Of a stretch of DNA of 64,000 nt, positions 7,217 through 50,842 are shown piece by piece. Each line of letters starts with the position of its first letter. Positions within the stretch are counted from its first letter, which is position 1. The notes below the pieces were generated by a model, which saw only the letters and a list, made by a program, of their open reading frames with translations, made no database searches and was not told where the DNA came from. The translations under genes and the position numbers were made by a program. This DNA is from an uncultured Planctomycetota bacterium (GTDB lineage: Bacteria; Planctomycetota; Planctomycetia; Gemmatales; Gemmataceae), in NCBI GenBank assembly GCA_963849325.1, contig CAWKHF010000006.1:288001-352000 (forward strand), in the 5' to 3' direction.

Positions 7217-7763
7217 GTGCGCCGTCGCCTGATCCAGACCGTGCTGCCTCTGGTCTTCTGCGCGGTGCCGGCGCTGGCGGCGGTGCTGATCGCCGCCTCC
7301 TTGCCGGCGCAAGCGCGCAACTTCTATCTCGACCGGCTGACCCCTCTCGACGGCCTGATCCTCGGACTCGGTGGCTCGATCTTCGTGGTGCAGATGTTGC
7401 TCGCCTGGACCGCCCTGCAGCTGGCGCGGCGGCAACTTCGACGAACGACCCGACCGCTGGCTGTCGAACCTGGCGCAGGCCGCCGAGTGGTTTCCCTTGC
7501 TGGGTCTGATCGGCACGGTGGCCGGCATCCTGCAAACATTCAGCTCCATCAAGGGTCCGACGCCGCCAGCACAGATCATCCAGCTGTACGCTCCGGCCAT
7601 CACGGCCACCGGCAGCGGCCTGTTCATGGCCCTCATCAATATCCTGCCGAGCTGGGTCGTGCTGCTGGGCCGCGACATCATCCGCTCGCTCGGCGGCGAC
7701 GCGCCGCCGCCGGACCCGCTGGCCGCCAACTCCTATCGACCGGCCGACGCCGCTCGGAGGTGA
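7217..7763 (+). CDS. MotA/TolQ/ExbB proton channel family protein; frameshifted
   Basis: EWFPLLGLIGTVAGILQTF...AITATGSGLFMAL plus N-terminal TM helices. Confidence 0.75.
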
Positions 7764-7790
7764 GCCGCCTGTTTCGGAAGGGACCGGCCG

Positions 7791-8340
7791 ATGATCCAGC
7801 TGCCCCAGCGGAGCGTGACGCGCTTCTTCATCCCGCTCATCGACGTGCTCACGTTGCTTTTCTGCATCTTTCTCGTGCTGCCTTTGGCGAAAGAATCCGA
7901 GCGACACGTCGGCGGACGTGGCGGCACTGGAGCAGCGCCTGCGCGAGAAGGAAGAAGAAGTCGAACGGCTGCGCCAGTCCGGCCGCGACATGCCGCAAGA
8001 GCTGCGCGACGAGATCGAAAAACTGCGTCAGGAGAAGGGCAAAGCGCTGCAAAAGCGCCTGTCGGTGCGCGTCCTGGAAATCGATTCCGACAACGGCAAA
8101 CTGTATTATCGCGATCCCGAACGTATCCCAATTCCGGACGAAGCGGCGGCGCACGCGCTCATCGACAGCGATCGCCGCAAGCTCGGCCAGCGCGAACTGT
8201 ATTACCTGATCCTGTATCCGCGCAGCCCGGCCAGCACTTATCCGACGCGCGGCCAGCGCGAGCGCTACGATCGCTGGTTCGAGGGCGTGGCGCTGGGTTA
8301 TGACATTCCAGGAGTTTCGGAGGGAGGGCCGCGGCCATGA
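7791..8340 (+). CDS. ExbD/TolR-like membrane protein with coiled coil; frameshifted
   Basis: FFIPLIDVLTLLFCIFLV matches the ExbD PLIDV TM motif; directly after the ExbB-like gene. Confidence 0.6.
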
Positions 8341-8983
8341 CGACGGATGGAGTGGTGAAGATCCTCGCCGTCGTGGGTGGCGGCGTGCTGGGCGGCGTGA
8401 GTCTGGGTCTGCTGGCGCAACTGCTGGCGAAGGCGTTCACCGCGCGACGGCTGCCGCGCTGGCCCGCCCTTGTGGTCCGACTGCTGGGCGGAATTATCTG
8501 CGGCTGGCTCATCGCTTTGTGGTTGTTCGGCGGCGGTGGTCCGGGTATCGGTGGCACGGGCGGCTGGGGCTTTGGTTCCGGGTCGGGCAAGGGCGAAGGC
8601 GAGAAGACAATCCAGATCGCCAGGATAGACGCCGACGGCGAGAAGGTCCGCGGGATCGCCAAAGCGCCGCCGCCGAGACGCTGCGCATCGAGGTACTGGG
8701 CAAAGACACGCTAAACGAAGCGGACTTCGCGGCCTCCCGCTGCTATCGCCTCGACACGGACGATGGCCCGCGCTTGCGGACGTTCGCGGAGGTCAAGGAG
8801 ACAGTCAAGAATCGGCAACGGGAGCAACCGCCGCTGCGCCGCATCGAGATCGTGCTGTATAAAGACAGTCCGGATCAGCGCGTGCCGCTCGTCGCCCAGC
8901 TGAAGGCGTGGGCCGCCGACCTGGACGATGGCAAAATGAAGGTGGACGTCTCGCAACCGGACGCCGATGCGCCTATGAAATAA
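8337..8983 (+). CDS. Hypothetical membrane protein; frameshifted
   Basis: Two TM helices and a Gly-rich linker (ORF 8337) continuing as ETLRIEVLG... (ORF 8300..8983); ATGA overlap with upstream gene. Confidence 0.6.
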
Positions 8984-9086
8984 CGACGGTTGATCCGTAC
9001 CGTCCTCGCCGCACTACTATTCCCATTCAATATCCGTAGCATAAGTAGAGGGCTTCGCCGCGAGAATCGGCAAGAGAGAACGACCT

Positions 9087-9443
9087 ATGAGCCTGAGAGA
9101 AAAGCCACATTACACTCTACCAGCCGCAACATTGGCTCAGTGGATCGAGGGCCAGCCTGACAAGTGGTGGTCGGTCGATGGCGACCCGCTGCTTACTTCG
9201 GTTTTGGACTTTCCGTGTCCGAGCGACGAACTTGCCCCCATGATTCGGAAGGTGGGAAAGGATCTATTGGTACAAGACAAGAACGTGACTTCTCAAGCTC
9301 ATGGCGAAGTGGTTGGAGGAGATAGGCTGGATGAATTAGCCGACATAAGCAAGAGACGGCATCAAAGAATCTTTCTCTTGTCATGGGCGAATTCGGATGT
9401 GGAGTGGCTGTTGCTCGAAGATGAGCCAATTCTTGCAACATAA
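9087..9443 (+). CDS. Hypothetical protein (low GC), partner of downstream HEPN protein
   Basis: 118-aa intact ORF with globular composition; visibly AT-richer than flanks. Confidence 0.7.
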   Translation: MSLREKPHYTLPAATLAQWIEGQPDKWWSVDGDPLLTSVLDFPCPSDELAPMIRKVGKDLLVQDKNVTSQAHGEVVGGDRLDELADISKRRHQRIFLLSWANSDVEWLLLEDEPILAT

Positions 9444-9476
9444 GTCTGACATGCTTCTCCACCGCGGCAAAAGGGG

Positions 9477-10343
9477 TTGGCCTTGCCACGTCCGCCGGTA
9501 AATTTGCACCAGAAAGTTCGGGGAGTCCTTCAGCATACTTCCCCACTGATACCACAAGCTGATCGTCCCATTCAACATTTCGAGCGCTCAGTTAATACGG
9601 GATTATTGCTCCTCAAGTACATTGACGATCATATTGATCCCAATGACGTTTATGGAAGAGTGTACGAGCGCCACCTCGGTCATCTCCGGCGCATGGTGCT
9701 TGCTGAACTAATCGAGTCATTCGAGAGATACTTGAAAGAGCTGGCGTCCGTATGCGTGGACTACCTTGCTCCCTATACGACGGACGACCGTTTTGAGGAG
9801 TTCGTTCCCAAGCGTAGCGATAAGATTGCAGCGTTCCTAAATGCCCCCACAGTCGGCAAGGCGCTCTGCGAGTCGGACACTTGGATCAACAACCCGACTA
9901 TCAACACTCGGTTTGCATCCCTCCTGAAAGACCCAGCGGGTGCCGGTTGGGAATTCCTGTTTCCTCAATCCCATCAGCAGCCCGCTATGGAACGAGATCG
10001 TGCTGCCACTTTGGCGATTCTTTGGCAAATTCGACACAATTTAGCCCATAATGTCGGTGTAATCACTCATTCGGACTCGATGAAGTTTCGTGTACTTATC
10101 GGTGGGCCTGTTGAGCCCGACCGTTGCCTTTTCCCAGCGACAAACGATCTTCGTTATGTGAAGCGGTTCTTGAGCGAATCCGCGACTCGAACCAATCAGC
10201 GTGTCGGCACACGCCTCGCTCAGCTATTGGAGGGTTTTCACTTGGTCGACCCCAATCTGTTCGATGCCCAAGCCAAAGCGGACTCGATCTCCCAGCGCTT
10301 CGATTTTTCTCTAACGATTAACGGACACGTTGGGGTGCCATAA
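9477..10343 (+). CDS. HEPN-domain protein (putative RNase)
   Basis: LIESFERYLKEL helix and LWQIRHNLAHNVG containing the R-x4-H HEPN motif. Confidence 0.65.
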   Translation: MALPRPPVNLHQKVRGVLQHTSPLIPQADRPIQHFERSVNTGLLLLKYIDDHIDPNDVYGRVYERHLGHLRRMVLAELIESFERYLKELASVCVDYLAPYTTDDRFEEFVPKRSDKIAAFLNAPTVGKALCESDTWINNPTINTRFASLLKDPAGAGWEFLFPQSHQQPAMERDRAATLAILWQIRHNLAHNVGVITHSDSMKFRVLIGGPVEPDRCLFPATNDLRYVKRFLSESATRTNQRVGTRLAQLLEGFHLVDPNLFDAQAKADSISQRFDFSLTINGHVGVP

Positions 10344-10394
10344 GGAAAACACGAAAGCAACCGCTATCGCTCGGCTGTCCGCCAATTAATGTCT

Positions 10395-10649
10395 CTAACG
10401 GTTGATAATGTAATGAACTATGCCTATTATGGCGGCGCCTATCCAGGCAGCGACAAAACCTGCAATTGCACCTACAAGGACACTCCCAAATATCGTTTCA
10501 GCAAAATGATGGGAAGGAGCTAGCAGGTAACCGCAACAGCAACCTACCACCGCACCACCCACGGAACCAGAAGTAAGGCTCGGAAAGAGGATAGCGCTAA
10601 CCCAATCCCTGCGGTCTGCCAAGCCTGCGCTGATTTGGTTTTTTCCCAT
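10395..10649 (-). CDS. Small hypothetical membrane protein (low GC)
   Basis: 84 aa with two Gly-rich hydrophobic segments. Confidence 0.4.
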   Translation of the reverse strand: MGKNQISAGLADRRDWVSAILFPSLTSGSVGGAVVGCCCGYLLAPSHHFAETIFGSVLVGAIAGFVAAWIGAAIIGIVHYIINR

Positions 10650-10910
10650 TCTTTCGCTCGTTCAACCAGAGGATAGCATTTAATTCCGTAGGCCGATATA
10701 CCTTGCCCACACGAAAGACGCAAGGACTAGTGTCCAGGCTTTGCCACTCTTTTTTTCGCAGCAACTCCTCGCGTGGCCTACACGCCTTTCCGAACGGCCG
10801 TCTGTAAGATGCGGCGATCCTTCCCTGATGGGAAGCATCCGATACACTGTTTCAACCGCTCAATTTGCTACACTGAGCAGGGGGATAGGTTCCTCTCAGC
10901 GGATCGTCTT

Positions 10911-13396
10911 ATGGGACCATCGAACCTTAGCATCGTCCTGTTCGGCATGCCGGCGGCCGGCAAGTCGTCTTTACTCGGCGCGTTGGCCCAGGCGGCGCAG
11001 GCGCAGGAGCACTTGCTCAACGGCCGCCTCACCGACGTCTCGCACGGCCTGGACGAATTGCGGCGCCGCGTCTACGAGGAAAGCGCCCGCCGCACTGCCG
11101 AGGAAGTCGTACCGTATCCCATCGATTTCGAGCCGTTCAATGACGACGGCCGCAAGGCGGAAGCGGCCCGCCACGTCGGCGCCGTGGTCATCGACTGCGA
11201 TGGCCGAGTCGCCAACGACTTGCTGGTGCGCCGGCAAGCGTTGCCCGAGGATAGCCCCGAAGGCACGCTGGCCCACGAAGTCGTCCAGGCCGATACGCTC
11301 GTCCTCGTCGTCGATGCCTCGGCGCCGCCGGCGCAGGTCGAGGCGGATTTCGTCGAGTTCGACCGCTTCCTGCGTCAGCTGGAAACGAGCCGCGGTTCGC
11401 GCCGAAGTGGGTGGGCTGCCGGTGTTTCTGGTGCTGACCAAGTGTGACCTGCTGGCCCAGGTCGGCGACCGCGTTTCCGACTGGATGGAGCGCATCGAGC
11501 AGCACAAGCGCGACGTGGACGCGCGTTTTCGCCGCTTCCTGGCCCGCCGCGAGCAGGAGTCCGGCCCGCTGCCGTTCGGCCGCATCGACCTGCACTTGTG
11601 GGCAACGGCGGTCAAGCGGCCGGAGTTGGCCGGTTCGCCGGCCAAGGCCCGCGAGCCGTATGGCGTGGCCGAGCTGTTCCGCCAATGTCTGGAACAGGCC
11701 GCCGCCTTCCGCGGCCGTCGCCGGCAATCGGGCCGTCGCCTGCTGTGGACGGCCTCGACCGCCGGCGGCATCGTCGCCGTCATGGCCTCGCTGGCCGCCG
11801 TCTTCGTCGTTCAGAACCTCGATACGCAGACCAACGCGCTGCGGAGCCGGGTGGACGCAGTTCGCTTCGCCGACCTGCCGTCGGCTGCTGAACGGCTGCG
11901 CGCCCCGATCCGCGAACTGCGCGCTCGCGCGGAGGAACTGGCCGCGATCCGGAAAGATCCGCAGTTCGGCTCTCTTCCCGCCGAGCAACAGCAGTTGGTG
12001 CGCGATCGTCTCGAGGAGCTGAATGCGTACCTGGCCTACTTCGACCGCCTACGCCAATCGCCGCGCCCGCAGGACGTGCATACGGAGAGGGCGCTGCGCG
12101 AGATCAAGGAGAGTTTGCGTACGGAGTTGGCCTTGCCCCGCGCCGATTGGGCCGCGACGGACGCCGGCCGGCTCCACGCCGATCGCGTCCAGGACGCCGA
12201 CGCGCTGGGCACCGCCGTCAAGCGGGCGCGGAACTGGTATCTCGACAGCGTCGAGAAGGCCGACAGCCTGTGGACGTTCCAGGGACAGCAGACCAGATCG
12301 GAAGCGGCCGGCGTCAACTGGGATTCGTGGGCGCGCGAGGTCGAAACGCTGCTCAGCCCGGAGCGCCGGCCGCCCTTCACGGGTTCAAGCCCCGTGCCCG
12401 GCGCCGCTACCACGCTGACTTACGATGCGACCGTGCTGCGCTTCGATGAGGTACTCAAGGCCCGCACCGACTGGGAGACGGACCAGCGCCGCTTGCAGCG
12501 CCTGCTCGATCTCAGTGCGGCGCTCGGCCTGGCGCCCGCCGTGGAAAAACGGCCTGCCGTGCTGGTCATCCCCCATCCCTTCACGCTGGCGCAGGCTGGC
12601 CAGCGACGCAAGACACTGACGCAATATTATCCGAATTATCAGAGTGGTTTTATCCTCGACAATGTGCCCGAAGCGATCCGGCCGCAGGTGCGCCAGGCGC
12701 GCGCGCACCTTTTACGAGCGCCTGCTGGAACCTGCCCGAGCCGCGGTATTGAGTCAACTTCAGCAGGCGGGCGGCGGCGCCGAAGAAACCCGAGCGCGCT
12801 GGGACGGCGTGCGCGACTGGCTGCGCGACCCAAAGGAACTACAAGACTGGCGCGTGCTGGCAATGGTGCTCGTCCGTCTTCACGATGCCGAGGCGGGCGA
12901 TCCCGTCGATGCCCTCCGCGAGTTCCTGAGCAAGACGAGCTTCGCGCTGGACGTGCGGCGTGTGACGCTGGAGGTGCCCGAGGGGCTGGGCGTGAAGCCG
13001 GCCGCGGATGCACGCTTCTCTGTCTATCACCCGGCGTCGGCGGGCGACAAACCCGCGCGGGTGTTCGAGTCGTCCGGCGAGGGCGAGCGCGACGCGCGGC
13101 GGCGCGTCGTGACCTATTCCTTCCGCTCCGTCGAAGGGCAGCGGCTGACGTATCAGCCCGGCGACGCTCTGTGGGCGACGCTGCCCCTGCGCGACGACTT
13201 GGCGTTCACCTGGGTGCGCGGCCGCAGCTTGATGTATCAGTTCGAGCGCCTGCTGCGGCCGCCGCGACTGCACAAGACGAGCGAAGCGACCACCGCCGGC
13301 ACACTGGAGGAGAAGGTCCAGCTGACGATCAGCCCATCCGACGGTGTGCCGCGTCTGCCCGACCTGATGCCGGTGGTGCGGCTTGTCCAAAACTGA
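10911..13396 (+). CDS. TRAFAC-class GTPase domain protein with TM helix and long C-terminal domain; frameshifted near 11400 and 12700
   Basis: G1 GMPAAGKSS, G3 DCDG, LVLVVDAS, G4 TKCD; TM GGIVAVMASLAAVFVV. Confidence 0.75.
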
Positions 13397-15458: not shown

Positions 15459-18008
15459 TCAACGTGCCAGCGGCCACAGACGCAGCTCACCGGCGGAAAG
15501 ACTGAGAAGGACGTGCCGGCCATCGGCGGAGAAGGCGAGGCACTCCACGCGCTCCAGGGCCGCGCCGTCGAGATGGGCGACCTCGCGGCCCGTGGCCGTG
15601 TCCCACACGCGGACGACCGCATCCGGCGTTCGATACTGACTGCTTCCGGTCAACACCTGCCGGCCGTCCGGCGTGAAGGCGACGCGGACGATGGGATTGG
15701 CGTGTCCCGCGCCCTGCCGCAGCTCCTTGCCGCCGACCACGTCCCACAGGCGCAGGACGCGATCGCCGCCTCCGGAGGCGGCCATTCGGCCATCCGGGGC
15801 GAAGACCACACTGTAAACGGCGGCCGTGTGGCCGAGCCAGCGGCCGCGTTCCTCCCCGCTCGCCACGTCCCACAAGCGCACGCTGCGGTCGGCGCTACCG
15901 GAAAGCACGCGCCGTCCATCGGAAGAGAAGGTCACGCACGTGACCGCGTCCGTGTGTCCCGTCAAGCAGCGCAATTCCTTGCCGCCGGCGAGATCCCACA
16001 GACGAAGCGTGCGGTCGTCTCCGCCGGAGACGGCAAGCCGGCCATCGGCCGAGATCGCCACCGCGCGCACCGCGTCGGTGTGGCCGGTGAAACGCCGCAC
16101 TTCCTGGCCCGTGTCCACGTTCCACAGACGCAAGCTGCGATCGCGCCCACCGGATAGCACGCTGCGCCCGTCGGAGCCGAACGCCACGCTTAACACCTCC
16201 TCCGTGTGCCCCTCGAAGCGCCGCCGCTCCTCTCCGCCCGCGAGACCCCAGAGGCGAACGGTTCGGTCCTCACCCGCCGAGGCGGCCAGGCCGCCACCGG
16301 GTGCGAAGGCCATGTCCCGTACCGCATCGCGGTGGCCGCGAAACGAGTTCGCCGGCCTCCGCACGACCTCAACCGCGCCGGCGTCCGCGCCGACAGAGAA
16401 GAGGCGGGCGAGTTCCGAGTATGTCTCCTCGAAGACTTGCCGCTGCACCGTGCCGCCCTTGGCCAAAAGCGTTCCCAGCGAACGCATCAACTCGGGCGAG
16501 CGCCGCAGGCGCACCGCGAACTCCTCGGGCATAAGTCCGGTCTCGGCAGCGGCGCTGCGCAAGTCCAAAACGTCCTCGTAACGCCGCACCGCTGTCATGA
16601 TCGGTTCCGGTCCTCCCGCGGGTACGCCCGCCTGCTCCAGCGCCCGCGCGAATCGCTCCATGTCTTCCTTCATGAGCCGGCGCATCCGGGCCGACTGCGG
16701 ATAAAGGGCGAGGATGGCGGCGCGCTCGTCCGCCGTGAAGACGGCGGGATTTTTGAGGACGTGAGCGCGGACCTGGTCGTCCTTGGGCAGCAAGCCGCGG
16801 ACGTGACAGGACAGGCACGACAGGCCATTCTCGACGAGCCGATCCGGCCGCCGGGGATCGCTGACGATGTCGCCGGGCGCCTTGTCCACGCGCCGGCCCG
16901 CGGCATCGACGAGCAAGTAGCCCTGCAAGCCGTTGGGCAGGTGAAAAAGGATTTCGCCGCCGGCCGCGACGAAGCCGCCCGATCCGGGCATGGGGCCGAG
17001 CGGGCGCTCGAAGATATTTTGCCTACCCGTATTCTCGCTGAAGTCGTAGCTGCGCCAGTAGGCGCCGTGGGCGGCATCGTGACGTTCGAGGATGCGATTG
17101 TTGCGGGCGACGCCGGAGCCGTTGAAGCCGGCACGGACGGCGTTGTCGTCTTGCAGGTCGGCCCGGACATCGACTTGCAGCCGACGTTCGAGGGCGCGGT
17201 CGGTGCTGGGCAGTTGCAGGAAATCGTGATAGAACGGCGGCCGCGATGCCGTGGCGAGGAACCAGTCGCCGCGCAGGTACGGCTGAGCGCTGCCGGTCAG
17301 CGCGGCGCACTCCTTCGCCGCGGCGCTCGTCTCGCCCGGGCGGTACGGATACACCACGGCCAGGCGCTCCCACATCCGGGCCGTCCATTGGTAATCGCGC
17401 AGATCGAGGCGATAGATCGTTCGCGCCGCACCCACGGGGCGCGGCGGCGAGATGCGGGGATGCCACGACAGGCTGTTGACCAGCTTGGCCAGGGCGTGCC
17501 GATGCCTGGACACGCTCTCTTCCGACAGCCCCGCGTTGGCCAGGTGGGAAAGCGTCAAGTAGCGCGTGAAGCGGCGCTGTCGCGGTGGGAGATCCTGCAA
17601 ATCGGCGAGGACCGTCCGCACTAGCAGCGCCTCGCGGAGGAGGGACGGCGGCGGCGTGGGATGGAAAGGCGGAGCGCCGGCGTCGATCCAACGGCGCAGG
17701 ACGGCGAGGTCGCCGGCTTGGAGGCGCGGCCGTTTGCCGGGCGGCATCTCGCCCTGCTCGATGCGTTGAAACAGCGGCGATTCGTCGGCCTTGCCGGGCA
17801 CCACCTGCGTGCGGCTGGCCAGTCGGTCGGGATCAAGGACATAATCGAAGCCGCCCTTGCCGGTCCCATCGGGTCCATGACAGGCGGCGCAATGCGTGCG
17901 CAGCACGGCTTCTGCTCGGGCCGGCAAGTCCTCCACCCCGTGCGCCGGGCTGAGGACCAGAAGGAACGACAGGAGCCAACCGACGGAATAAGTCGTCGCG
18001 CGTCGCAT
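15459..18008 (-). CDS. Planctomycete cytochrome c domain plus WD40 repeat protein
   Basis: Signal peptide, CAACH and CLSCH heme motifs, GEMPP, about 7 GH...WD repeats at the C-terminus. Confidence 0.88.
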   Translation of the reverse strand: MRRATTYSVGWLLSFLLVLSPAHGVEDLPARAEAVLRTHCAACHGPDGTGKGGFDYVLDPDRLASRTQVVPGKADESPLFQRIEQGEMPPGKRPRLQAGDLAVLRRWIDAGAPPFHPTPPPSLLREALLVRTVLADLQDLPPRQRRFTRYLTLSHLANAGLSEESVSRHRHALAKLVNSLSWHPRISPPRPVGAARTIYRLDLRDYQWTARMWERLAVVYPYRPGETSAAAKECAALTGSAQPYLRGDWFLATASRPPFYHDFLQLPSTDRALERRLQVDVRADLQDDNAVRAGFNGSGVARNNRILERHDAAHGAYWRSYDFSENTGRQNIFERPLGPMPGSGGFVAAGGEILFHLPNGLQGYLLVDAAGRRVDKAPGDIVSDPRRPDRLVENGLSCLSCHVRGLLPKDDQVRAHVLKNPAVFTADERAAILALYPQSARMRRLMKEDMERFARALEQAGVPAGGPEPIMTAVRRYEDVLDLRSAAAETGLMPEEFAVRLRRSPELMRSLGTLLAKGGTVQRQVFEETYSELARLFSVGADAGAVEVVRRPANSFRGHRDAVRDMAFAPGGGLAASAGEDRTVRLWGLAGGEERRRFEGHTEEVLSVAFGSDGRSVLSGGRDRSLRLWNVDTGQEVRRFTGHTDAVRAVAISADGRLAVSGGDDRTLRLWDLAGGKELRCLTGHTDAVTCVTFSSDGRRVLSGSADRSVRLWDVASGEERGRWLGHTAAVYSVVFAPDGRMAASGGGDRVLRLWDVVGGKELRQGAGHANPIVRVAFTPDGRQVLTGSSQYRTPDAVVRVWDTATGREVAHLDGAALERVECLAFSADGRHVLLSLSAGELRLWPLAR

Positions 18009-18539
18009 GGGACCTCCACAAGCGAGATGCCGCGGCATCTCCGGAAGTCCTTATCATCTCCGGGGCAGCCAGGAAGGCAAGTAACAAGCCTGTAACAAGC
18101 GTCGGCGACAGCGGGAGCGCGAACCGTCCAGATTGTCGGGTCCAAGGTGAGGAAGGGGAAGAGGATTGGCTCCGTTGCGACACCGCCGAGTGAGCCAATC
18201 CAAAGACCGATCGCCAGCGTCCAATCCATCGTCGTTGCGAAGAGTTGTCGCCATCGAGCGGAGGCGACAGAACGGCAATTGAACTTTTTATCGCCGGCAT
18301 CCAGGGCTGGGAAGCCGGATTGCGGCAGATTATCTCGGAGAAATTGAGCAACGACACGAAATCGTAAATCATTGTGTGGTCTTTATTTCCGAACAGACTC
18401 TCGGCATGGAGGGCCGACCGCGCGGCAGTCTACCCAGAAATCGACTCGGAAGAACCTCATCTCCCGCGCCGGTTCCTCCAATCCGTTCATCCCCCTCGGA
18501 TCGGCGTATTCGGCAGGACCATACCGCTCCTTTCCCCTT

Positions 18540-22047: not shown

Positions 22048-22431
22048 TCATGCCATGATACCAGCTTCATGCCACTCGATCATATCATTCACGGCATACC
22101 TGAACCATTCCCAAAAAGTGTGCATCCGGGTAACGACCTCGTAGCCGGGCGATGCGAAGTCGTGAACAACAATAACTTGGCCCGCCCCCTGTTCGGGATC
22201 ACGCATGACGAAGCAAGCAACGTCGTCGTTGTCGGCCCTCCGTGCGAACGGGATGATGCTCCGCTCCGGGTAGCGTTTGTTGACCCCGACGAACAGATAG
22301 TCGAACTCCTCGTCGGACACCAAATGCCAGGGATGTAGGTTGACCAAGTTTAGCCCTTTGGCCTCCTCGTAGCCATTGGGCAAATTGACCCCGTTCTCCA
22401 CGGCGATCATTGCTGGCTTTGTAGAAACCAT
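22048..22431 (-). CDS. SUKH/SMI1-KNR4-like immunity protein
   Basis: LPNGY...IIPFARRADNDDVACF...VIVVHDFASPGYE...TFWEWF; directly after the ParB-like toxin. Confidence 0.75.
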   Translation of the reverse strand: MVSTKPAMIAVENGVNLPNGYEEAKGLNLVNLHPWHLVSDEEFDYLFVGVNKRYPERSIIPFARRADNDDVACFVMRDPEQGAGQVIVVHDFASPGYEVVTRMHTFWEWFRYAVNDMIEWHEAGIMA

Positions 22432-22444
22432 CTTGTCCTCCTAT

Positions 22445-25400
22445 TCACTCCGGGGGCTTCGGCATCCGTGGCGGATTGGGCGTGCCGGTCGGCGGAAGTG
22501 GTGGCCTTTGGTTCCCTGTTCGCTGGGCGAGAGCTTCGCCCCAGGTTTTAGCATCACCGAACCGACCAATCATGTCAGGAGGCAGTAGTTCATCCGGCGC
22601 ATGGACTCTCACGGGTATCTCTTTGATCCCAAGTTCTCTGGCGACAGCAACACGAGTGTTGTCAATCGTGGTAACGCCATCTGCTGTTCGGACAGCATCC
22701 ACAGGATCACCGGCCCATCCCTTCTCCTTCATGCTCTGCCGGAGAACATCTGCTCGCCCCCTCCCTCCCGCCGTATTCTGGCTAAACCGGACTTTCGCTG
22801 GGTCAAGGTTTTCAACGGCTCCCTTTGGAGCAAGCGTCTTCGCCTCTGCTTGAGCAAGTGTCTTCGCCTCTGCTTGAGTGAGCGTCTTCGCCTCTGCTTG
22901 AGCAAGCGTCTTCGCCTCTGTCCTGGCCAATGTTTTTTGGGCCTCAATCTCTGACTTAATCGCCTTTTTCGTTGCCGAAAACGCGCCAGCTGTTCCTTCG
23001 CCTTCAACTGTGCCTATCCCTCCTATCTCAAATAACGCATACCATCCGATAGCCTCCATCATATCGTCATAGAATGCCGACGAGATTTTTAGGGAGATTT
23101 GAAAACTTTGCTTGAACGCTTCCCCTATGGGCATCCCTTTTCCGGTTGTCGACGGAGCCTGAGGGGAATTAATGCCTCCAGGGTGAGACATTGCCAAATA
23201 CGCATAAACCAGGCCCTCCACATCTTCATCTTCAATATCTTCACCCTCGTCACGCAATATGCTCGCAATGGTACTAATGTCGGACGGACCCAGCTGATCG
23301 GGATCATGATTACTGAAATACCAATCCAATACATCCAATTGCGTATCTGTCGGCGGATCATCACGGAAGGGCATCCCGAACGGCGAATAGTCGAGGTTGC
23401 CCGGTCCTGCTCCCGCCGCCGCATTAGAGACGTTGGCGAAGCCTTGCATCAGTGAGTAGCGGTCCTGGCCGGTCTCGCTCTGGCTGAGGCTGCCGCTCTT
23501 CCAATCGCCACTCTCCTGCAAGCTGTAGCTGTTGCTGCCGACACCACTGGGCATGGTTGCGCCGGGACCGCTGTCGGTCAAGCTGTAGCTGCCACTACCC
23601 GATTCCGTGCGCTGGAAGGTCTGATCCGGCGTACTGCCCGTCTCGCTCACCGTGTTCGACTCGCTGCCCTGCAACGTCGCGCTGTAACTGCCGCCCGACG
23701 ACTGCCCCGACTCCGAGAGATTATAGCTGTCACCGCCCGTCAGGCCACGGCTGTAGACGCCGGTGACGTTGTTGCCGTTCTCCTGACCGCTGCTCGTCGC
23801 ACTGCCCAACTCCGTCAGGCTATAACTGTCGCTGCCCGTCGCCGTCTGCGTCATCCCGTAGTTGTCGCTGCTGCTCAACTGCGCCGTGTAACTGCCGGTG
23901 AAATTATCCCCCGACTCCTGCCGCGTACTCGTCTGACTGTCGCTCTCGCTGGTGTCCACGCCACCAGCACTGTCCTGCAGTGTCGTCGTGCCGCTACTGC
24001 TGGTGTTGCGCGTGTAGGCACCCGTGAAGTCGTCGCCCGACTCGGCAAGCGTGCTGTTCGACTGGCTCGTCTCCGTGTACGACGCTTGCCCCGCCAACGT
24101 CGTCGTCGTGTCCTGAATGGTCGTGCTCACATTGTCCGTACCCGAGCCGCTGTAGCTGCCGGTCTCATCGTCGCCCGTCTGCTGCCACGACTGCTGCTCG
24201 CTGCTGGACTTCGACAAGCTCGACGTGCCCACGCTGTTGGTGGCCGTCTGCCCCACATTGTCCGTGCTGCTGCTGCTGCTACCGAAGCTGTCCTCGCCCG
24301 TGTACAAGTCGTCGCTGTCCTGGACGGTGCTCGTCGTGGACTGCACGTCCTGCAACGAGTAGCTGGTGCTCGTCGCCAGATACGTGCCGCTCTCCGTCGT
24401 CGTCGTCAGGTCGCTGCTCGTGGTCGTCGCCGCGTCGCTGCCGCTGAACTCGTCGGCGCTGTCCTGCGTCGTGGTCGTGTTGGAATCGCTCACCGTCTGG
24501 TTGTAACTGTCGTTACCGTCGCCGCCCTGCTTGGTCGTACTCGTCACCGTCGTCACCGTCTGACCGTCGCTGTCGCTGCCGGTGTAATCGTCGCCCGAGT
24601 CGCTGTCGCTGCTGCTGACCGTGGTCGTCGTCGTCGCCGTGAACGAACCACGTGAGTCCGTGCCGCTGTCGGTCGTGGTGGACGTGCCCGAACCGCTGCC
24701 GCTGACGGTCTGGACGCCGCTGAACAGGTTGCCGCTGAGCGTCAACGTGCTACTGTCGCTGGACTGCGTCACGCCGCTGTCGTCCAGACCATCGTCGCTG
24801 ACATCGTCGTTGTCGGTGTCGCTGTCGCTGCTGCTGACGGTCTCGGCCAGGCTGCCGGTATAGGTGTTCTCGCTCAGCGTGGTCGTGCTGCTGTCGGAGG
24901 CTTGGTCGGTGCTGCTGTCCGTGGCACCCTGGTCCGACTGGTGTCCCCGCCGCTGACGCTGAGCAAGTCCTGGATGGTCGCCGACAGGCTGCCGCTGAAC
25001 AGGTTCTGGCTCCAGACCGTGCTGCACGTGTCGCTGCCCTGCGACGTGCTTGTGTCCGTCAGTCCCTGATCGGTCGCGTCGTCCGTGCCCGTGTCCGTCA
25101 CGCTGTCCGTACTCGTACCCGACACGCTGCCCGTGTACACATTCTCGCTCAACGTCGTCGTCGTGCTGTCGCTGCTTTGGTCCGTGCTGTTGTCGTCGGC
25201 GCCCTGGTCGCTGCTGTCGTCGCTGCCGGCGTCGCTGCGGTTGTCCGTGATCGTCTCGGACAGGATGCCCGTGAAGGTGTTCTCGCTCAGCGTGGTCGTG
25301 CTGCTGTCGGTGCTGCTGTCCCTGCTGTTGTCGTGTCACCCTGGTCCGAACGGTTGTCCTGGCGGGAAGCACACACGTCCTGAATGGTCGCGGACAGGCT

Positions 25401-28400
25401 GCCGGTGAAGACGTTCTGGCTCCAGACGGTGGTGCTGGTGTCGCTGCCCTGCGTCGTGCTCGTGTCCGTCAGCGCTTGGTCCGTGGTGTTGTCGCTGCCG
25501 TTGTCGGTAATCGTGTCACTGCCGCTGCCGGAGAGGTCGCCCGTGTACAAGTTCTCGCTCAGCGTCGTGGTCGAGCTGTCCGTGCTGTTATCGGTGCTGC
25601 TGTCCTGGTCGCCCTGGTCGGAGACATCCTCCGTACCGGCGTCGCTGTCGGTGTCCGTGAGGGTCTCCGACAGGCTGCCGGTGTAGGTATTCTCGTTCAG
25701 AAGGGTCGTGCTGCTGTCGCTGCTCTGGTCGGTGCTGGTGTCGTCCTCGCCCTGGTCGGAGGTGTCGTCGCGGCCGCTGGTGTTAGCAAGTCCTGGATGG
25801 TGGCCGTCAGGCTGCCCGTGAACACGTTCTGCGTCCACAGCGTACTGCTGGTGTCGCTGCTCTGCGTCGTGCTCGTGTCGGTCATCTCCTGGTCCGTCGT
25901 GTCGTCCGTGCCGCTGTCCGTGGCCGTATCGTTGCTGCCGCCGGAGAGACTGCCCGTGTACAGGTCTTCGTTCAGTGTCGTGGTCGAACTGTCGCTGCTG
26001 CTGTCGGTGCTGCTGTCGTTCTCGCCCTGGTCCGAACTGTCATCCGTGCTGGTGTCCGTGCTGTTGTCCAGGATCGTCGTCGTCAGATTGCCCAGGATGG
26101 TATTGCCCATCACCGTCGCCGTGCTGCTGTCCGTGCTCGTGTCGGTGCTACTGTCGCTCAACGACTGGTCCGCCGTCGTGTCCTGGAGCACGGCACGCAG
26201 TTGATCCTGCACCGTCGCCGTCAGCGTGCCGGTAAAGAGGTTCTCCACCCAAGTCGTCGTCGTCGTGTCGCTGCCCTGCGACGTGCGGTCATCGCTCACC
26301 GTCTGCACCGTCTCGTCGTCCGTGCCGCTGTCCGTCACGGTGTCCGTGGTCGTGCCCGAGACGCTGCCCGTGTACAGGTTCAGCCCCTCCACCGTCGTCG
26401 CACTGTCCGTGCTCTGATCGGTGCTGGTGTCCGTGGGAGCATTGGGCAGCTCTACCACCTCGTCATCCGTACTGCTGTCGCTGCCGAGGTCGCTGATCGT
26501 CGCCGTTAGGTAGCCGCTGAACAGGTTGCCGCTGACCGTCGTGATCGCGTTGTCGGTGCCCGTGTCCGTGCCGCTGTCCTCTAGCGACTGGTCCGTCGTC
26601 GTGCCACCGCCCGAGGACGACGACTGGTCCGTCGTACTCTCCGACAGCGCACCCCCCACCAAATCCAAGGTCCAACTGGCGGAGTTGCTGTCCGTGCCCT
26701 GCGACGTACACGACGACTGCAAGCCCTGGTCCGTCGCGTCGTCGTCCTCCGTGTCCGTCTCACCGCCGCTGTCCGAACCCGACACCGTACCGCCCGCCCA
26801 GTCCTCCGTCAGCGTCACCGTCGCGCTGGCGTTACCCACGTCCGTGCCGCTGTCCGCTTCGCTCTGATCGCTGTCGCTGCCCTGCTCCGAGAAGGAATGG
26901 GTGTCCGTCGTCGTCACCGTCTGCGTGCCGGCCAGCACGTTGGCCACGAATTGCGCCGTCAGGTTGCCACTGGACCAACTCGTGGCACTGTCGCTGGCCG
27001 TCTGATTGCTCACGCTCTCCAACAGCGACGTGCCACCGCTGCCCGACGACGACGACGACATGCTCCCCGTCAACACGTTGCCGCTGATCGTCGTCGTCAT
27101 GTCCTCGCTGTCGGAGACCGAGCTGCTGTCCTGCTCGGTCTGATCGCTGCCGGTGTCCGTCTCGCTGCTGCCGTCACTGCTGCTCTGCGTGCTCGCGTAC
27201 GCCCCACTCAGACGATCCAGCGTCGTGGCACTGGTCAACACCGACGTAACGCTGCCCGTGCCGCTGTCATCCTCGGTCTCCTCGTCGTCGCCCGACTGCA
27301 CCGTGGTGCTGCTGGACAACGTCACACTGTCGCTGTAGTCGCCGTCCGACTCCTGCAACGAACCCGACCAGGTGCCGCTGCCGTTGGTCGTCGTCGTCGA
27401 ACTGCCGCCCGCGTTGGTCGCCGTCCGCGTCACCTGGTCGGTATTGTTGCCGCTGATGCCGCCCAGAAACTCGGCACCGATGCCGCCGCCGCCGTCCACT
27501 ATCGTGAGCGTGTTCAGCGTCTCCGTCTCGGTATAACTGTCGCCGCCTTCCTGGCCCGTCGTCGTCGTCACCGTCTCCACGCCGGTGGTCACGCTGCCGC
27601 CATAGGTGCCGTCAAGAAAGTTGCCGTCCAGCTGGATCTCTTGGCCGCCGGTCTGTGTCTGCGTGTCGGTGAAATTGCCATTCGCATCGCGGCCGATGCT
27701 GTCCTGTACCGTCTGGTTGATGCCGTCGTCGATGGTCGAGGAGAAGTCGCCCGTGTCGCCGTCGCCGCTGCCCGTTACCTGGACGTTGCCGCCGCCGCTG
27801 ACCGTGCCGCTACGGTAGCGGGACAGGTCGTCGCTGACGATGGAGCCGACGACGCCATCGCCGCCGCTGGCACTGCTGGCGAAGCTGCCCTCGGTGAAGA
27901 TGCTGGGCGTGTCGCTGCCCTGGGCCGAGACGGCGAAGGTCAAGGACACGATGTCCAGCGTGGCCAAGGTGCCGCTCGGCGTGTACAGCGTCTTTTGCAG
28001 TCGGTAGTCCAGCTCGCCGTTGGTGCCGGCGGCGTAGGTGCCGGTGCTGGCGTCCTGTCCGCCGGTTTCGCTGTCGCCGGAGGAGAGCTTGCTGGCCTGG
28101 TAGGACAGGTAGAGGGATTTGCCCGGGCTGGAGCTGGCGACTTGCACTTGGGTGTCGTCGGTCAGGTCCAGGACGTCGGCGAAGCTGACGCCGGCGCCGA
28201 CGGCCTGGAAGGTGTTGTCGGTGACCTGGACGGCGACGACATACGGTCCTTGCAGCCGGTAGGTGTGGCTGCCGATAATGTCGAGTCCGCCGTTGGCATT
28301 GGCTTGGACTTGTCCGCCGGAGGTGGTGCCGTCGCCCCAGAGGATGACGGCGGAGTAGTCGCCGGCGCCGTGGAAGGGGTTGGTGATGGTGGCGACGGTG

Positions 28401-30387
28401 CCGGAGAATTGTTGGCCTTCGATGGCGGCGAAGGCGGTGCCGCCGACATCGGGTTCTTCGTCGATGGTCGTGGTGGCGACGGAGGGAGAACCGAGGGTGG
28501 CGTTGCTGGCGCCACTGAGGACCACGGCGAAGGCGTCGCTGGGTTCGTCCTCGTCGCTGCCGCTGCCGTCGTCGAGGATGGGCACGGTGAAGCCTTCGCT
28601 GGTCTGGCCGGGAGCGAAGGTCAAGGTGCCGTTGGTGGGGGTATAGTCTTCGCCGCCGACGGCCGTGATGTCGCTGGTGGCATAGTCCACGGTCACGGTT
28701 TGGCTGGCGGAGCCGCTCAAGGTGACGGTGACACTGGCCGGCCCCTCGGTCTCGGACACGGTGTAGGTGGGCGAACCGAACTGCACCGTCGGCGTGGGTG
28801 TAGGCGTGGGCGTGGGCGTGCTATCTTGCGGGAGGGCCACGGGGGCCAGCGCGGTCGTGCCCGTGCGGGTGCCCGTGGGGTGGCTCACGACCGGGTGGAA
28901 CGACGCGCTGCCAGCATCCTCGTCGCCGTCGCTCTCGTCCAGAAGGGTGACGGTCTGGCCGTGGCGGGTCTGGTCCTGCGTCAAGGTCGGACGGCTGTTG
29001 GCGCCGATCGAGTCGGTGCCCGCCGTGGCCGTCGGCGTGGGCGTTGGCGTCGGTGTGGGCGTGAGTATCGAAGGAGCTGTGTTGCTGGAGAGAACCGTGC
29101 TCGTACGGGTGTTCGTCGCTGTCGGCGTGGCCATCGGCGTCGCCGTAGACGTGGGGGTCGGCGTCGGCGTGATCGTTGAAGGAGTTGTGTTGTTGGGGAG
29201 GGTCGTGCTCGTACGGGCGTTCGTCGCCGTCAGCGTGGCCGGGGGCGTGGACGCGATCCCCGCCGTCAGGCGGGTGGGCGCGGACAGGCTGCTCCGACTT
29301 GGCACCGACAGGGTGTTGGACGACGGCAGTGTCGGCACATCCGCGGAGAACGGGCTGCCGGGCAGCGTGCTGCCCGTCCCCAGCGATCCGCTCAGGCCCG
29401 GCAGCGTGGGTGTACCGGGAAGGCCGCCAGAGAGGTTCGGCAGGCTCGGCCTACTCAGGCCGCTGTGAGGCGGCGTCGCCGGAGTCGTGCTGCCCGGCGG
29501 CGGGGCGGATGGCGTCGCCGAGGTGGCACCAGGCGTGGTCCCGACGTTGGCGTCGCTGCCCGAGGGCGGAACGCCCGAAGCCGCGGACGCCCCGGACCCG
29601 CTGCCACTGCCGCCGGCCGGCGCCGAACATGGTCGCGGTGTTGCCCACGGTCGCGTTGCTGGGAATGCCTGGCCGCAGACGGCGTCGCTCCCGCCGAAGT
29701 CGAGGCCAGTTGCGGCAGCGACGGCAGATTGCTGTGGCCACCACCGCCGCCGCCGTTGCCGTTGCCCCCGCCAATGCCCGCTGTGCTGCTGCCGCCGGGA
29801 GCACCGCCGCCCCCGCCGCCCCCGTTGTTCTTGTTGTCCACCGGCGGCGGCGGAGAAGTCGGTCGCCGCGTCGGCGGCGGCGACAGGTCGAGATCGTCCG
29901 ACGATGCCGACGGCTGCGAGGGAGGCGTGTCGTCGCGGACGCTGGCCGCGGACGTGATCGGCAGGGGCATCCCTTGCCCCGGATGTCCAGACGACGAGGC
30001 GTGTTCGCCCAACAGCCAGCTCCAGTCCGCCGACGAACCCGTCGCCAGCACCACTTCCTGCTGCGCGCCATCTGGCGGCGTGGCGGCGGCCACGGTGGTC
30101 TGCGGTTGGGGTTGGGTCGGCGCGGCGAGGGCGTCGGCCGGGGCAGAGTCGGCGGCCGCGTGCCAGGCGGGCACGAGCAAGGCCGTCAGGGTCTCGCCGG
30201 GCAGAGCACGCTCCTCCAGGGCCAGCAATTCCAGCCGCACCGGCGGACGAGGGATGCGGACGAGCGGGCCCCGCCAGCGGCCATACAGGCGACGAGGCCA
30301 GCGCAAGGCCCGGAGCAAACCGACCGTGGTCCGACGCACGTGCCAGCGAGCCCACCGCGTCCACCCGTAGCGCAGCCAGCGTCTCAT
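22445..30387 (-). CDS. Giant polymorphic toxin carrier B (~2600 aa, several frameshifts) with ParB-like toxin tip 3
   Basis: RLELLALEERALP leader, Calx-beta (~28460-28790), WGDG Ig-like domain, S/T/D stalk, GNLDYSPFGMPFRD (23360-23401), tip LDPAKVRFSQ...GWAGDPVDAV...DNTRVAVA. Confidence 0.85.
22828..22920. repeat. 24-bp tandem repeat x4 (EAKTLAQA) in the pre-toxin linker
   Basis: gagcaagcgtcttcgcctctgctt units. Confidence 0.9.
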
Positions 30388-30521
30388 GGGGCGTCCTCCC
30401 CGTGCGGTCGTCGCCGCGGAGTGGAGTCGATACCTTCCAGCAATGGATGCGAAGGACTATCATCCGGGCCTGGAGACCGGCGTGTCAAGGGGTAGCTGGG
30501 GGGTAGCTTGCTTTGGACTCA

Positions 30522-30605: not shown

Positions 30606-31031
30606 TTGCTGGATCGCGTGATTGTTTGGAAGAAAGGACACTTGCGCCGGCTTCTCGACGCCTCCCTGGAGTCTTATCATCAAGCGCGTCCCCACATGGG
30701 ATTGGGCCACAATGCTCCGCAGCCGCGTGCGGTAGAGCCACCGGAGCATGGCCGAGTCGTGGCGGAACCGATGGTAGGTGGTCTGCATCACCGTTACCGC
30801 CGCTGCGGCTGAGTACCCGCATTGAGAGACACCTCACGTTCTTTCGCCGGAACAGCGTTCCCGCTCCGTCTGAAGAGCAAAAACAGACCTTGAATGTACC
30901 TGCTCCCTGCTCGGAAGGCGACGAAGCCGCGTCGATCATCACTCCACCTCGAAGGTGCCAGTGCGATGATCCCTGAATCGCGCTCCTCCATCCGCCACAT
31001 GACTGCCCGGATGGCATTTTCGGGAAGGACA
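30606..31031 (+). mobile_element. Truncated IS: C-terminus of integrase-core (rve/IS481-like) transposase plus right end
   Basis: LDRVIVWKKGHLRRLL...YHQARPHMGLG...GGLHHRYRR (30606-30812), then terminal ...ttttcgggaaggaca. Confidence 0.8.
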
Positions 31032-31429
31032 GGTCACCACGGACGAATCGCTGCCGGTCGCGCTCTCCTCGTCGTCGCTCTCCTCGTCGTCGCCCGACTG
31101 CACCGTGGAGCTGCTCAACAGCGTCACGCTGTCGCTGTAGTCCTGGTCCGACACCTGCAACAGCCCGTCCAATTGTCGCTGCCGACGGTCGTCGCGCTCG
31201 AACTGCCGCCAGGGTTGGTCCCCGTCTGGACCACCAAGTCGGTGTTGCTGCCGCTGACGCTGCCGACAAACTCGCCGCTGATGCCGCCGCCGCCGCCCGC
31301 CAACGTGTGGACCGCCAACGTCTCCGTCTGCGTGTACTGGTCGCCGCCCTCCTGACCCGTCGTCGTCACCGTCGTCACGCCCCTGGCCACGCTGCCGCCA
31401 TAGGTGGCGTCGAGGAAGTTGCCGTCCAT
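31032..31429 (-). pseudogene. Internal fragment of a further toxin carrier stalk allele
   Basis: MDGNFLDATYGGSVARGVTTVTTTGQEGGDQYTQTE... homologous to 27240-27630 and 39200-39600. Confidence 0.8.
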
Positions 31430-49985: not shown

Positions 49986-50055
49986 GACGGACTCCTGCGC
50001 TATCGAGACAGCGGATAGCGATGAATGAGGAGAGCCGAGCCTCCTCGATGCCGCC

Positions 50056-50842
50056 TCAATCCGGTGCCTCCGTTGGAGGCTTCGTTGCGGACAGAGGGCG
50101 GTCGCTGGTTTGGGCGTCGGGGCGAAGGGATGCAGGCCGGTCGGGCGCTGCTTGCCGCCAGCCGAGTTGATGGGCCATCTCTCCCAGCCCCACGAACACA
50201 CGCCGCCCCTGCTCCCCAGCGCCGGCGTGCCGGAACCAGTTGTCAAACAGCCCCGCCTGCCGTAGGGCCGCGACGCGAAAGGCTGCCCAGTGACCCGCCG
50301 GTGTCCAGCCGCCCGGACGCCCGTCGCGGACGAGAAACGGCACACCTCGATACCACGTCTGTGCGCAAGAATTCGACCTCGCCGGGCGGGTAATCGTTCC
50401 ACAGCACGGGGCCGACGACATCCACGCCTGGCTGCAGCCTGGACGACAACTCCGACCACCAGCCGTCCTCCGGAGGCGTATCCTCATCAATGCAGACCAC
50501 GTATTCGCTTCGGAAGGGCAGGTCGCACCACAGCCAACGCAGTATCACCGCCAGAGGAAATCGGCGTGGGAAGCACCAGCAAGCGAACGGCAGGCCGGAG
50601 GAGGTGCTGCCGCGGAAGCGTTCGACGCCTTCGGGCAGGCGGGCATACTCCAGGACGCGGCCTTCAGAACTGAGCCGGCCCAGGGCATAGTGTCCCTCCG
50701 GAGAGGATGCGGCCAGCCCCAAGCGTAATTCCAGGTCGTTGGGCGGCATGGCCTCCAGGACGCGATCCAGCCAACATCGCCAGGCGGCGGAGTGTCCCTG
50801 GACAGGGCACAGGCAAAGAGTGGCGCGAGGTCCGTCGGGCAT
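50056..50842 (-). CDS. GT-A (GT2-like) glycosyltransferase-like protein; frameshifted
   Basis: EYVVCIDEDT (DxD-like), W..L..R..PGVDVVG, GHWAAFRVAALRQ across two frames; co-oriented with TPR-GT9. Confidence 0.45.

Follow-up and report, generated by a model that had tools for sequence, protein, structure and literature searches.

Two paralogous giant genes, carriers A and B, are encoded on the minus strand of the window analyzed here, a stretch of 64,000 nucleotides (contig positions 288001–352000, GC content ~65%) from the genome of an uncultured Planctomycetota bacterium of the family Gemmataceae, and both contain a long tandem array of a repeat of 46 residues (138 nt). The repeat is real, and it is a two-strand β unit of which no earlier description was found. 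The best explanation of the data, to which a probability of about 0.7 is given, is that the unit is a two-strand structural repeat that forms the rod- or ribbon-shaped middle of secreted polymorphic toxins specific to Planctomycetota, the interruptions of the reading frames in both carriers most likely being artefactual. What is new is the scaffold repeat; the type of polymorphic-toxin system is already known.

The array of carrier B occupies positions 23635..27450 (minus strand), as delimited by lag-46 autocorrelation, turn spacing, and a hidden Markov model (HMM) of the unit, and is distributed over four frame pieces. Matches to the unit HMM are found at aa 1084–1544 of piece 1, at aa 1–433 of piece 4, and in two further pieces in shifted frames. 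The main open reading frames (ORFs) of this carrier, 25697..30463 (1588 aa) and 22445..25372 (975 aa), both on the minus strand, are in one frame, and the interval 24700–27100, in which the repeat was originally predicted from the letters of the sequence, constitutes the middle of the carrier. In carrier A, the array lies at 36957..39440 (minus strand), corresponding to a unit-HMM span of aa 873–1700 of the main ORF (36861..42056, minus strand, 1731 aa).

The 46-residue unit

Residue identity at a lag of 46 is 0.29–0.39 overall in carriers A and B, with z values of 9–12 against shuffles. In the 544 residues of carrier A that extend from aa 900 to the GTDSRGSF block, identity is 0.293 at lag 46 (z 12.1), 0.270 at lag 92 (z 9.4), and 0.212 at lag 138 (z 6.0), compared with a threshold of 4.1, below which 99% of the best z values from 200 shuffles fall. 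The 225 residues of carrier B between the VVELP landmark and the first frame break give an identity of 0.358 at lag 46 (z 9.4). A period of 23 is only weak beside the dominant period of 46 and its harmonics of 92 and 138, and the last 287 residues of the carrier A ORF have no significant period when taken alone (lag 92, z 3.4; lag 46, z 2.9; threshold 4.0). The original prediction had described turns recurring every 46 residues, a second turn midway, and intervening strands rich in Ser, Thr, and Asp and almost free of Lys, Arg, and Pro, and had named a lack of 46-residue periodicity as one observation that would speak against it. The periodicity is present in both carriers, and the turns and the composition are as described.

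Throughout 27079..24034 of carrier B, the turn N-x-[FYWVILM]-[TSLM]-G is repeated every 138 nt, in a series that includes NLYTG (26380), NLFTG (26242), NTILG (26104), and DLYTG (25966). From 26380 to 24454, the codons for N-x-hydrophobic-[TS]-G are 138 nt apart except at the block-junction units discussed below. Midway along the unit, at positions 24–27, lies a second turn, T-[ND]-[QG]-G. In the consensus of 73 exactly spaced units, G-N-x-[VFL]-[TS]-G is followed by a stretch with Ser or Thr at every other residue, the mid-unit turn, and a second stretch of the same kind. Ser and Thr are found on the alternate face of both half-units, and hydrophobic residues cluster at unit positions 3, 7, and 9 and, more weakly (20–30% of units), at positions 40–45 beside the G-N turn.

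The composition of these 73 units is extreme: Ser 20.9%, Thr 20.8%, Gly 9.9%, Asp 8.8%, Asn 6.3%, Arg 1.8%, Pro 0.3%, and Lys 0.2%. Asp residues are located at unit positions 13/17/21 and 30/34/38 in carriers A and B and are absent from these positions in L013, a homolog introduced below. The acidity is therefore confined to the lineage of carriers A and B rather than shared by the family, and a role of Ca2+, if there is one, would be limited in the same way. Scans of carrier A, carrier B, and the carrier B stalk with Pfam and NCBIfam, taken to E ≤ 10, found no family in the repeat.

Toxin context and family distribution

The end of the array and the boundary that follows it, RYSLL..F.NVSNA..PG.LD.SP.G.PF.DP, are common to all members of the family, and the sequences are unrelated after this boundary (alignments A1 and A2). 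In carrier B, the boundary is placed at 23351..23461 (minus strand) by the pattern RYSL..F.NVSNA..PG.LD.SP.G.PF.DP in both alignments. The variable C-terminal part beyond it, at 22445..23350 (minus strand), is a presumed toxin by its position; it matches no Pfam family, the only hit being LytR_C at an E value of 0.05, under the cut-off of that family. A small ORF directly 3′ of carrier B (22048..22431, minus strand) has no Pfam family and is a candidate immunity gene by position alone. Carrier A ends in an RNase domain of the barnase/N1/T1 type (35532..35783, minus strand; PF00545, E 7e-06, 26.9 bits, cut-off 24). Directly 3′ of this domain lies a candidate immunity gene (35011..35502, minus strand) that is weakly Barstar-like (PF01337, E 0.027, 14.9 bits, under the cut-off of 23.4). 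The RNase and the Barstar-like ORF (35011–35783) are likely a toxin-immunity pair.

An orphan cassette at 32770..34807 (minus strand) comprises a partial array with an A-like number of units, the boundary, and a different short C terminus, encoded by two ORFs that are separated by a frame change. The cassette was found in a search of the source genome (match at 34190–34795, 67% identity) and is supported by translations. More stalk-like fragments are present just upstream of carrier B (30940–31300, minus strand). The C termini of homologs carry Tox-GHH in L013, GH-E in P0010, and PT-HINT in P0002. Among 22 further C-terminal stretches scanned, PT-HINT is found in five, WHH, Endonuclea_NS_2, and PT-TG are also seen, and 16 match no family. 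Across the family, the variable ends include RNase, HNH-type nucleases, and PT-HINT. From this arrangement of a conserved region, unrelated swappable C termini, and orphan cassettes, the family is assigned to the polymorphic toxins in the sense of Zhang et al. (2012).

Carrier B as a whole extends over 22445..30387 (minus strand), as judged from its ORFs, its N-terminal frames, and a Calx-β match. It consists, in order, of an LExLExR-type leader, a linker rich in Ser, Thr, and Pro, a Calx-β domain, a WGDG β domain, the array, the pre-toxin boundary, and the C-terminal domain. The leader is of the planctomycete LExLExR type. The Calx-β domain is a single N-terminal domain in each carrier, outside the 46-residue repeat, at 28457–28792 in carrier B (minus strand; PF03160, E 1.5e-22) and at 40401–40739 in carrier A (minus strand; PF03160, E 1.9e-22, aa 440–552).

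By its distribution among sequence collections, the repeat family is a rare one of the Planctomycetota/Gemmataceae. In the source genome, the repeat is found at this locus only, apart from one weak match on contig C4. A 452-residue repeat query matched none of 40 relatives of the source genome, ranging from genus to class, and a word-indexed search with aa 1000–1731 of carrier A against proteins of 952–3030 aa gave no hit at E ≤ 0.001 among 8000 scored candidates. An exhaustive HMMER search of 1.84 billion cluster representatives returned 10 proteins (P0001–P0010) at E ≤ 0.001, none of them at E ≤ 1e-30; most are short forms that start inside the array. Scans of DNA collections located the family at five loci in Planctomycetota/Gemmataceae genome records (GTDB species genomes) and on 22 metagenome contigs. 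In the ESM Atlas, the two nearest clusters are Planctomycetota hypothetical proteins with values of 0.85 and 0.81, under the 0.9 level.

The homologs preserve the period of the repeat and differ in its copy number. In five homologous ORFs, z at lag 46 is 14–39: 39 in L010 (2888 aa), 35 in L013 (at least 4323 aa), and 14–15 in the two L012 ORFs of ~1400 aa each. Turn-to-turn spacings in the range 40–52 are exactly 46 in 88 of 110 cases, and 106 of 150 turn-motif spacings overall equal 46, 92, 138, or 184. The spacing of 46 and the G, N, hydrophobic, T, and G positions are kept among proteins of 16–32% identity. Counted by HMM, at an independent E value (i-E) ≤ 0.01 and over all reported matches, respectively, carrier A has 14 and 21 units, the L012 proteins have 16 and 23 and 16 and 25, L010 has 39 and 45, and L013 has 53 and 62. 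The array spans correspond to ~18 units in carrier A, ~19 in L012, ~43 in L010, and ~59 in L013. Proteins of the family thus have between about 18 and 60 units, a roughly threefold range by HMM and span, and the length of the array, for which tunability had been proposed, is highly variable across homologs.

Homolog frames in other assemblies are uninterrupted, with lengths of 1396 to >4323 aa, and those on metagenome contigs include two of 2553 and 3564 aa, likewise unbroken, in each of which the array spans ~1860 aa. The short L012 protein represents the minimal architecture: LExLExR-type leader, WGDG β domain, array, boundary, and C terminus. In L012, two paralogs of ~1.4 kaa lie side by side (L012:1917–6182 and 7460–11647), and in L010, the full 2888-aa gene is followed by a partial copy of 1073 aa (L010:14035–17253). 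From these side-by-side copies, tandem paralogy looks typical of the family.

Copy number and reading-frame breaks in the carriers

Between the VVELP and GTDSRGSF landmarks, carrier A has five turn motifs (aa 1239–1423) and carrier B has 13 (26380..24730), in agreement with the expected surplus of about eight units in B. The eight extra units are accounted for by a triplicated block of ~410 nt. This tandem triplication (24814..26032, minus strand), detected by Tandem Repeats Finder with a period of 410 nt, 3.0 copies, 76% matches, and a score of 1332, is composed of three blocks of three 46-residue units. One unit per block, at the block junction, is off-length, with 137, 134, and 137 nt in place of 138, such that every block of carrier B is in a different frame.

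The repeat in 24700–27100 is not one ORF; frame changes are located near 25787, 25335, and 24937, at differing positions within the same kind of unit. The first (25784..25800, minus strand) was placed by three-frame translation, and the upstream frame reaches a stop at 25697–25699. The second (25332..25338, minus strand) was placed by three-frame translation and unit-HMM matches, and past the third (24934..24940, minus strand), the coding frame is once more the one used by the upstream ORF. Both intervening pieces match the unit HMM, with i-E values of 1.8e-10 and 7.3e-13 for 25784..25335 and of 6.7e-11 and 3.9e-13 for 25332..24937. An exact 38-base query from beside the first break had no match among the metagenome contigs. 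Programmed frameshifting was considered for these sites and set aside: no slippery heptamer is apparent by eye, the three sites differ, and essential genes are broken likewise.

Carrier A is interrupted as well. Its full extent, 35532..42372 (minus strand), includes an in-frame TGA at 36861–36863, where carrier B has Thr, and several frame changes between ~36800 and ~35800. Within the 600 nt past the TGA, carrier A has at least four indels relative to B, with gaps of 1, 4, 1, and 1 nt. The same region has a 270-nt tandem duplication at 36246–36750 (1.9 copies, 81% matches). An alternative genetic code was set aside as an explanation of the TGA on inspection, no code test having been made, as it is a single stop amid indels. 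The carriers also have the same one-base frame change in the Gly/Ser-rich N-terminal region, between FG.G and GGSGSGSG, at ~41640–41660 in carrier A and ~29640–29660 in carrier B (minus strand). Carrier B has an additional 2-nt gap relative to A, ~50 nt upstream of this shared break. Candidate explanations of the shared break are a consensus error specific to this sequence context, copying by gene conversion, and the presence of two separate genes.

The state of essential genes in the same assembly bears on how these breaks are to be read. Outside the window, rpoB matches in four pieces and three frames, and rpoC in three frames (C1:334967–343005). A second secA-like copy (C1:105958–107696) is in five pieces and a second gyrA-like copy (C14:48379–50982) in 10, and the other secA and gyrA copies of the assembly are whole. 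Because rpoB and rpoC are essential and cannot be pseudogenes, the assembly carries clustered indel errors, and the breaks in carriers A and B are read in the same way. Errors in the assembly consensus are thus the most likely source of the frame breaks in the extra blocks of B and of those in A. Three observations weigh against an artefact: the three breaks of carrier B have the same sign, fall in equivalent units, and together add up to whole codons; at the TGA of carrier A, four neighboring bases are different from those of B; and the window has an intact ORF of 5.6 kb at another place.

The alternative is that both carriers are genuine decaying pseudogenes and that the eight extra units arose when a block of a length not divisible by three was amplified, with inactivation of B as the result. 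The same-sign frame changes at differing positions in equivalent units of B would fit such a history, as would the stops in the upstream frame of B, the TGA and the indels of A, and the frame change in the orphan cassette that lies between the two carriers. We regard this as unlikely, although it deserves to be taken seriously. The similar damage to rpoB and rpoC means that breaks are no evidence of decay in this assembly, the shifted blocks still encode clean units (i-E down to 4e-13), and homologs in other assemblies run uninterrupted over 2500–4300 aa. With rpoB and rpoC frame-broken, the broken genes of this assembly in general should not be taken as evidence of pseudogenes or of recoding.

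Predicted fold and comparison with known scaffolds

Two AlphaFold 2 (AF2) predictions were made from the array of carrier A. The first covers aa 1124–1448 (325 aa), with a 77-row alignment of family windows, and has a predicted local distance difference test (pLDDT) score of 87.7 and a predicted template-modeling (pTM) score of 0.73, the five models ranging from 87.7 to 59.6 in pLDDT. The model has 14 strands of ~20 residues with gaps that alternate between 2 and 4–6 residues, which gives two strands per unit. Its top 50 structural matches are all outer-membrane barrels (Z 12–17, root mean square deviation [rmsd] 8–16 Å), among them CymA (Z 17.4, rmsd 15.0 Å, 268 residues aligned) and TonB-dependent transporters (Z 13–15, rmsd 8–10 Å). 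Judging by these neighbors, we take the model for an antiparallel meander that runs up and down and is curved like the wall of a barrel.

The second prediction covers aa 884–1731 (848 aa), with 55 alignment rows. The model is all β, with a pLDDT of 69 and a pTM of 0.69 (five models, 69.0–54.1), and in six units, the strand continues unbroken through the mid-unit turn. Its best structural match is the curli protein CsgA of Pontibacter korlensis (8c50_A; Z 16.3, rmsd 8.1 Å, 322 residues aligned), followed by SufD-type proteins, an antifreeze β-helix, EtpA, and HMW1 with Z scores of 9–11; a Foldseek search with this model returned nothing at E ≤ 0.001.

Covariation was calculated from 131 ungapped units (effective number 103) with 200 within-protein permutations as the null. 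It peaks on the anti-diagonals i+j = 53 (0.071) and 51 (0.061), compared with null values of 0.034 and 0.026 (standard deviation 0.009; z ~4). The null maximum over all diagonals is 0.061, which only diagonal 53 exceeds and diagonal 51 equals. This covariation places the two half-units antiparallel and adjacent, as in a hairpin or a β-arch. The same register is predicted by a meander and by a solenoid, and coupling between the same positions of neighboring units is confounded by duplication; covariation is no discriminator of the two. The strand and turn positions agree between the predicted models, but the pairing may be that of a meander or that of a solenoid. The originally proposed antiparallel β-meander thus holds in part: two strands of ~20 residues per unit are predicted and the 325-residue model is a meander, whereas the 848-residue model is a two-sheet solenoid. 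Its suggested variants, a giant barrel and an amyloid-like filament, each find a counterpart in one model, barrel-like at 325 residues and curli-like at 848, and on these the models disagree.

In the preferred reading, that of a two-strand structural repeat in a rod or ribbon, the two ~20-residue β-strands of each unit would be joined by the tight T-[ND]-[QG]-G and G-N-x-hydrophobic-[TS]-G turns. About 18 to 60 units placed head to tail would build a long, regular, and very polar cross-β rod or ribbon, with 42% Ser plus Thr and almost no Lys or Pro. The rise per unit would be ~0.96 nm for an antiparallel hairpin meander and ~0.48 nm for a two-sheet curli-like solenoid. The array would be the length-variable middle between the N-terminal surface domains and the swappable toxin, and may serve as a rigid stalk or scaffold that holds the C-terminal toxin off the producing cell and sets its reach. 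Through unequal recombination between the near-identical DNA units, blocks of three units could be gained or lost, of which carrier B would be an example (13 units vs 5).

Several points weigh against this reading. For the same residues, the two AF2 models give different topologies, and the pLDDT values within each set of five models are widely scattered. Both AF2 alignments consist partly of shifted windows of the same repeat proteins, and the contacts may be biased. A profile of the C-terminal stalk gave only four chance-level matches among PDB sequences (E 0.4–2), and the argument for a stalk function is one from analogy and position only.

A more specific form of the rod may be put forward tentatively, as a conjecture less probable than not. 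The array would represent a new class of cross-β scaffold, a two-sheet solenoid zippered by Ser and Thr with a coil about twice that of curli, and would serve as a genetically length-tunable, toxin-presenting rod of ~9 to ~30 nm. The Asp residues of the A/B lineage at positions 13/17/21 and 30/34/38, paired on i+j = 51, would make its folding or stiffness Ca2+-dependent.

In the RHS-like cocoon that was originally suggested, the strip of hairpins would spiral into a closed shell that, like those of Rhs and Tc BC proteins, encloses the C-terminal toxin. The carriers resemble RHS/YD toxins (Rhs, Tc TcB-TcC, and the teneurin shell) in that a β-hairpin repeat region, a type of repeat also indicated by the 325-residue model, lies upstream of a sharply bounded swappable toxin, with candidate immunity genes downstream and orphan cassettes. 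In addition, the last part of the array has a ~23-residue Y-[ST]-L-x-E-[ST]-G rhythm (alignment A1), which is reminiscent of YD motifs. However, neither the two carriers nor six homologs matched RHS_repeat or a YD family in Pfam or NCBIfam, and the carrier unit, with its G-N-x-hydrophobic-[TS]-G turn, is 46 residues long, as opposed to about 21 residues with YD. Rhs and Tc shells are of fixed size, with which a unit number that varies about threefold, from about 18 to about 60, is hard to reconcile. Among the matches listed for either AF2 model there is no Rhs, Tc, or teneurin chain, the models covering parts of the array and being mutually discordant. Given the lack of a family match, the period, and the unit number, a cocoon is improbable, and this part of the prediction finds no support.

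An unfolded Ser/Thr-rich spacer, possibly glycosylated and mucin-like, in which the periodicity reflects recent DNA duplication only, appears similarly improbable. Such a spacer would be compatible with the Ser and Thr content, the remainder being mostly Asp, Gly, and Asn, with the lack of a known family match, and with the tandem duplication evident in the DNA of carrier B. Against it stand a spacing and turn positions conserved between proteins of 16–32% identity, the alternation of Ser and Thr with other residues along both half-units, the anti-diagonal covariation within proteins, and AF2 pLDDT values up to 88. A closed giant β-barrel or pore, in which the meander would form a channel, for example for toxin translocation, is suggested by the up-and-down meander of long strands that the 325-residue model shares with CymA and TonB-dependent transporters, but is very improbable given the large rmsd values, a polar surface (acidic in A and B) with no lipid-facing hydrophobic side, the solenoid-like and unclosed 848-residue model, a unit number too variable for a defined closure, and the context of a secreted toxin.

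In role, the carriers come nearest to those of the RHS and FHA/CdiA types, and in predicted shape to curli-type solenoids or to barrel-wall meanders. Similar to curli CsgA and other two-sheet solenoids, the carrier unit is predicted to have a strand-turn-strand arrangement, with Gly and Asn at the turn and a strict unit length. The curli repeat has ~22 residues, and the carrier unit is twice as long. Curlin_rpt has no match in Pfam scans of carriers A and B and the homologs, even at E ≤ 10. Moreover, the carrier repeat is part of a multi-domain toxin rather than a secreted fiber subunit, and the 325-residue model is not a solenoid. The FHA/CdiA and TpsA stalks are plausibly alike in being long β rods of variable length that carry a polymorphic C-terminal toxin, and EtpA and HMW1 match the 848-residue model with Z scores of 9.6–9.7. 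The carriers differ from them in repeat length, in motif, and in an N terminus with an LExLExR-type leader and a Calx-β domain in place of a TPS domain; in Pfam, neither Fil_haemagg nor a TPS domain was matched by A, B, or the homologs. The Ser/Thr-ladder solenoids of ice-nucleation and antifreeze proteins share with the unit Thr and Ser at alternate positions, a strict period, and very low Lys and Pro, and the antifreeze protein MpAFP (3p4g) is among the matches of the 848-residue model (Z 9.8). Their repeat lengths and motifs are different, and there is no family match.

The literature found, including the main-text parts of PMC3482391 and PMC5177795, describes the repeat nowhere. The toxin stalks named in the main text of Zhang et al. 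(2012; PMC3482391) comprise FilH, RHS, ALF, and tail-fiber repeats. To the known RHS, FHA, ALF, and tail-fiber carriers, the family described here adds a scaffold with a different and very regular unit. Its extreme composition, strict length of 46 residues, and threefold range of copy number make it a test case for the stabilization of long polar β-strands, and designable rods of set length are a possible use. The main text of PMC5177795 reports unexplained giant genes in planctomycetes, for some of which the family offers a function.

Elsewhere in the window, an 859-aa WD40 β-propeller protein is encoded at 15459–18038 (minus strand; PF00400, E 3.9e-69). By eye, a 998-aa ORF at 47463–50459 (minus strand) has two nearly identical halves in tandem, each resembling a TPR-plus-glycosyltransferase protein, and its end is seemingly out of frame. 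The intact 1874-aa ORF at 51386–57010 (minus strand) resembles, by eye, a fusion of a DNA methyltransferase and an SNF2-type helicase, as found on mobile elements.

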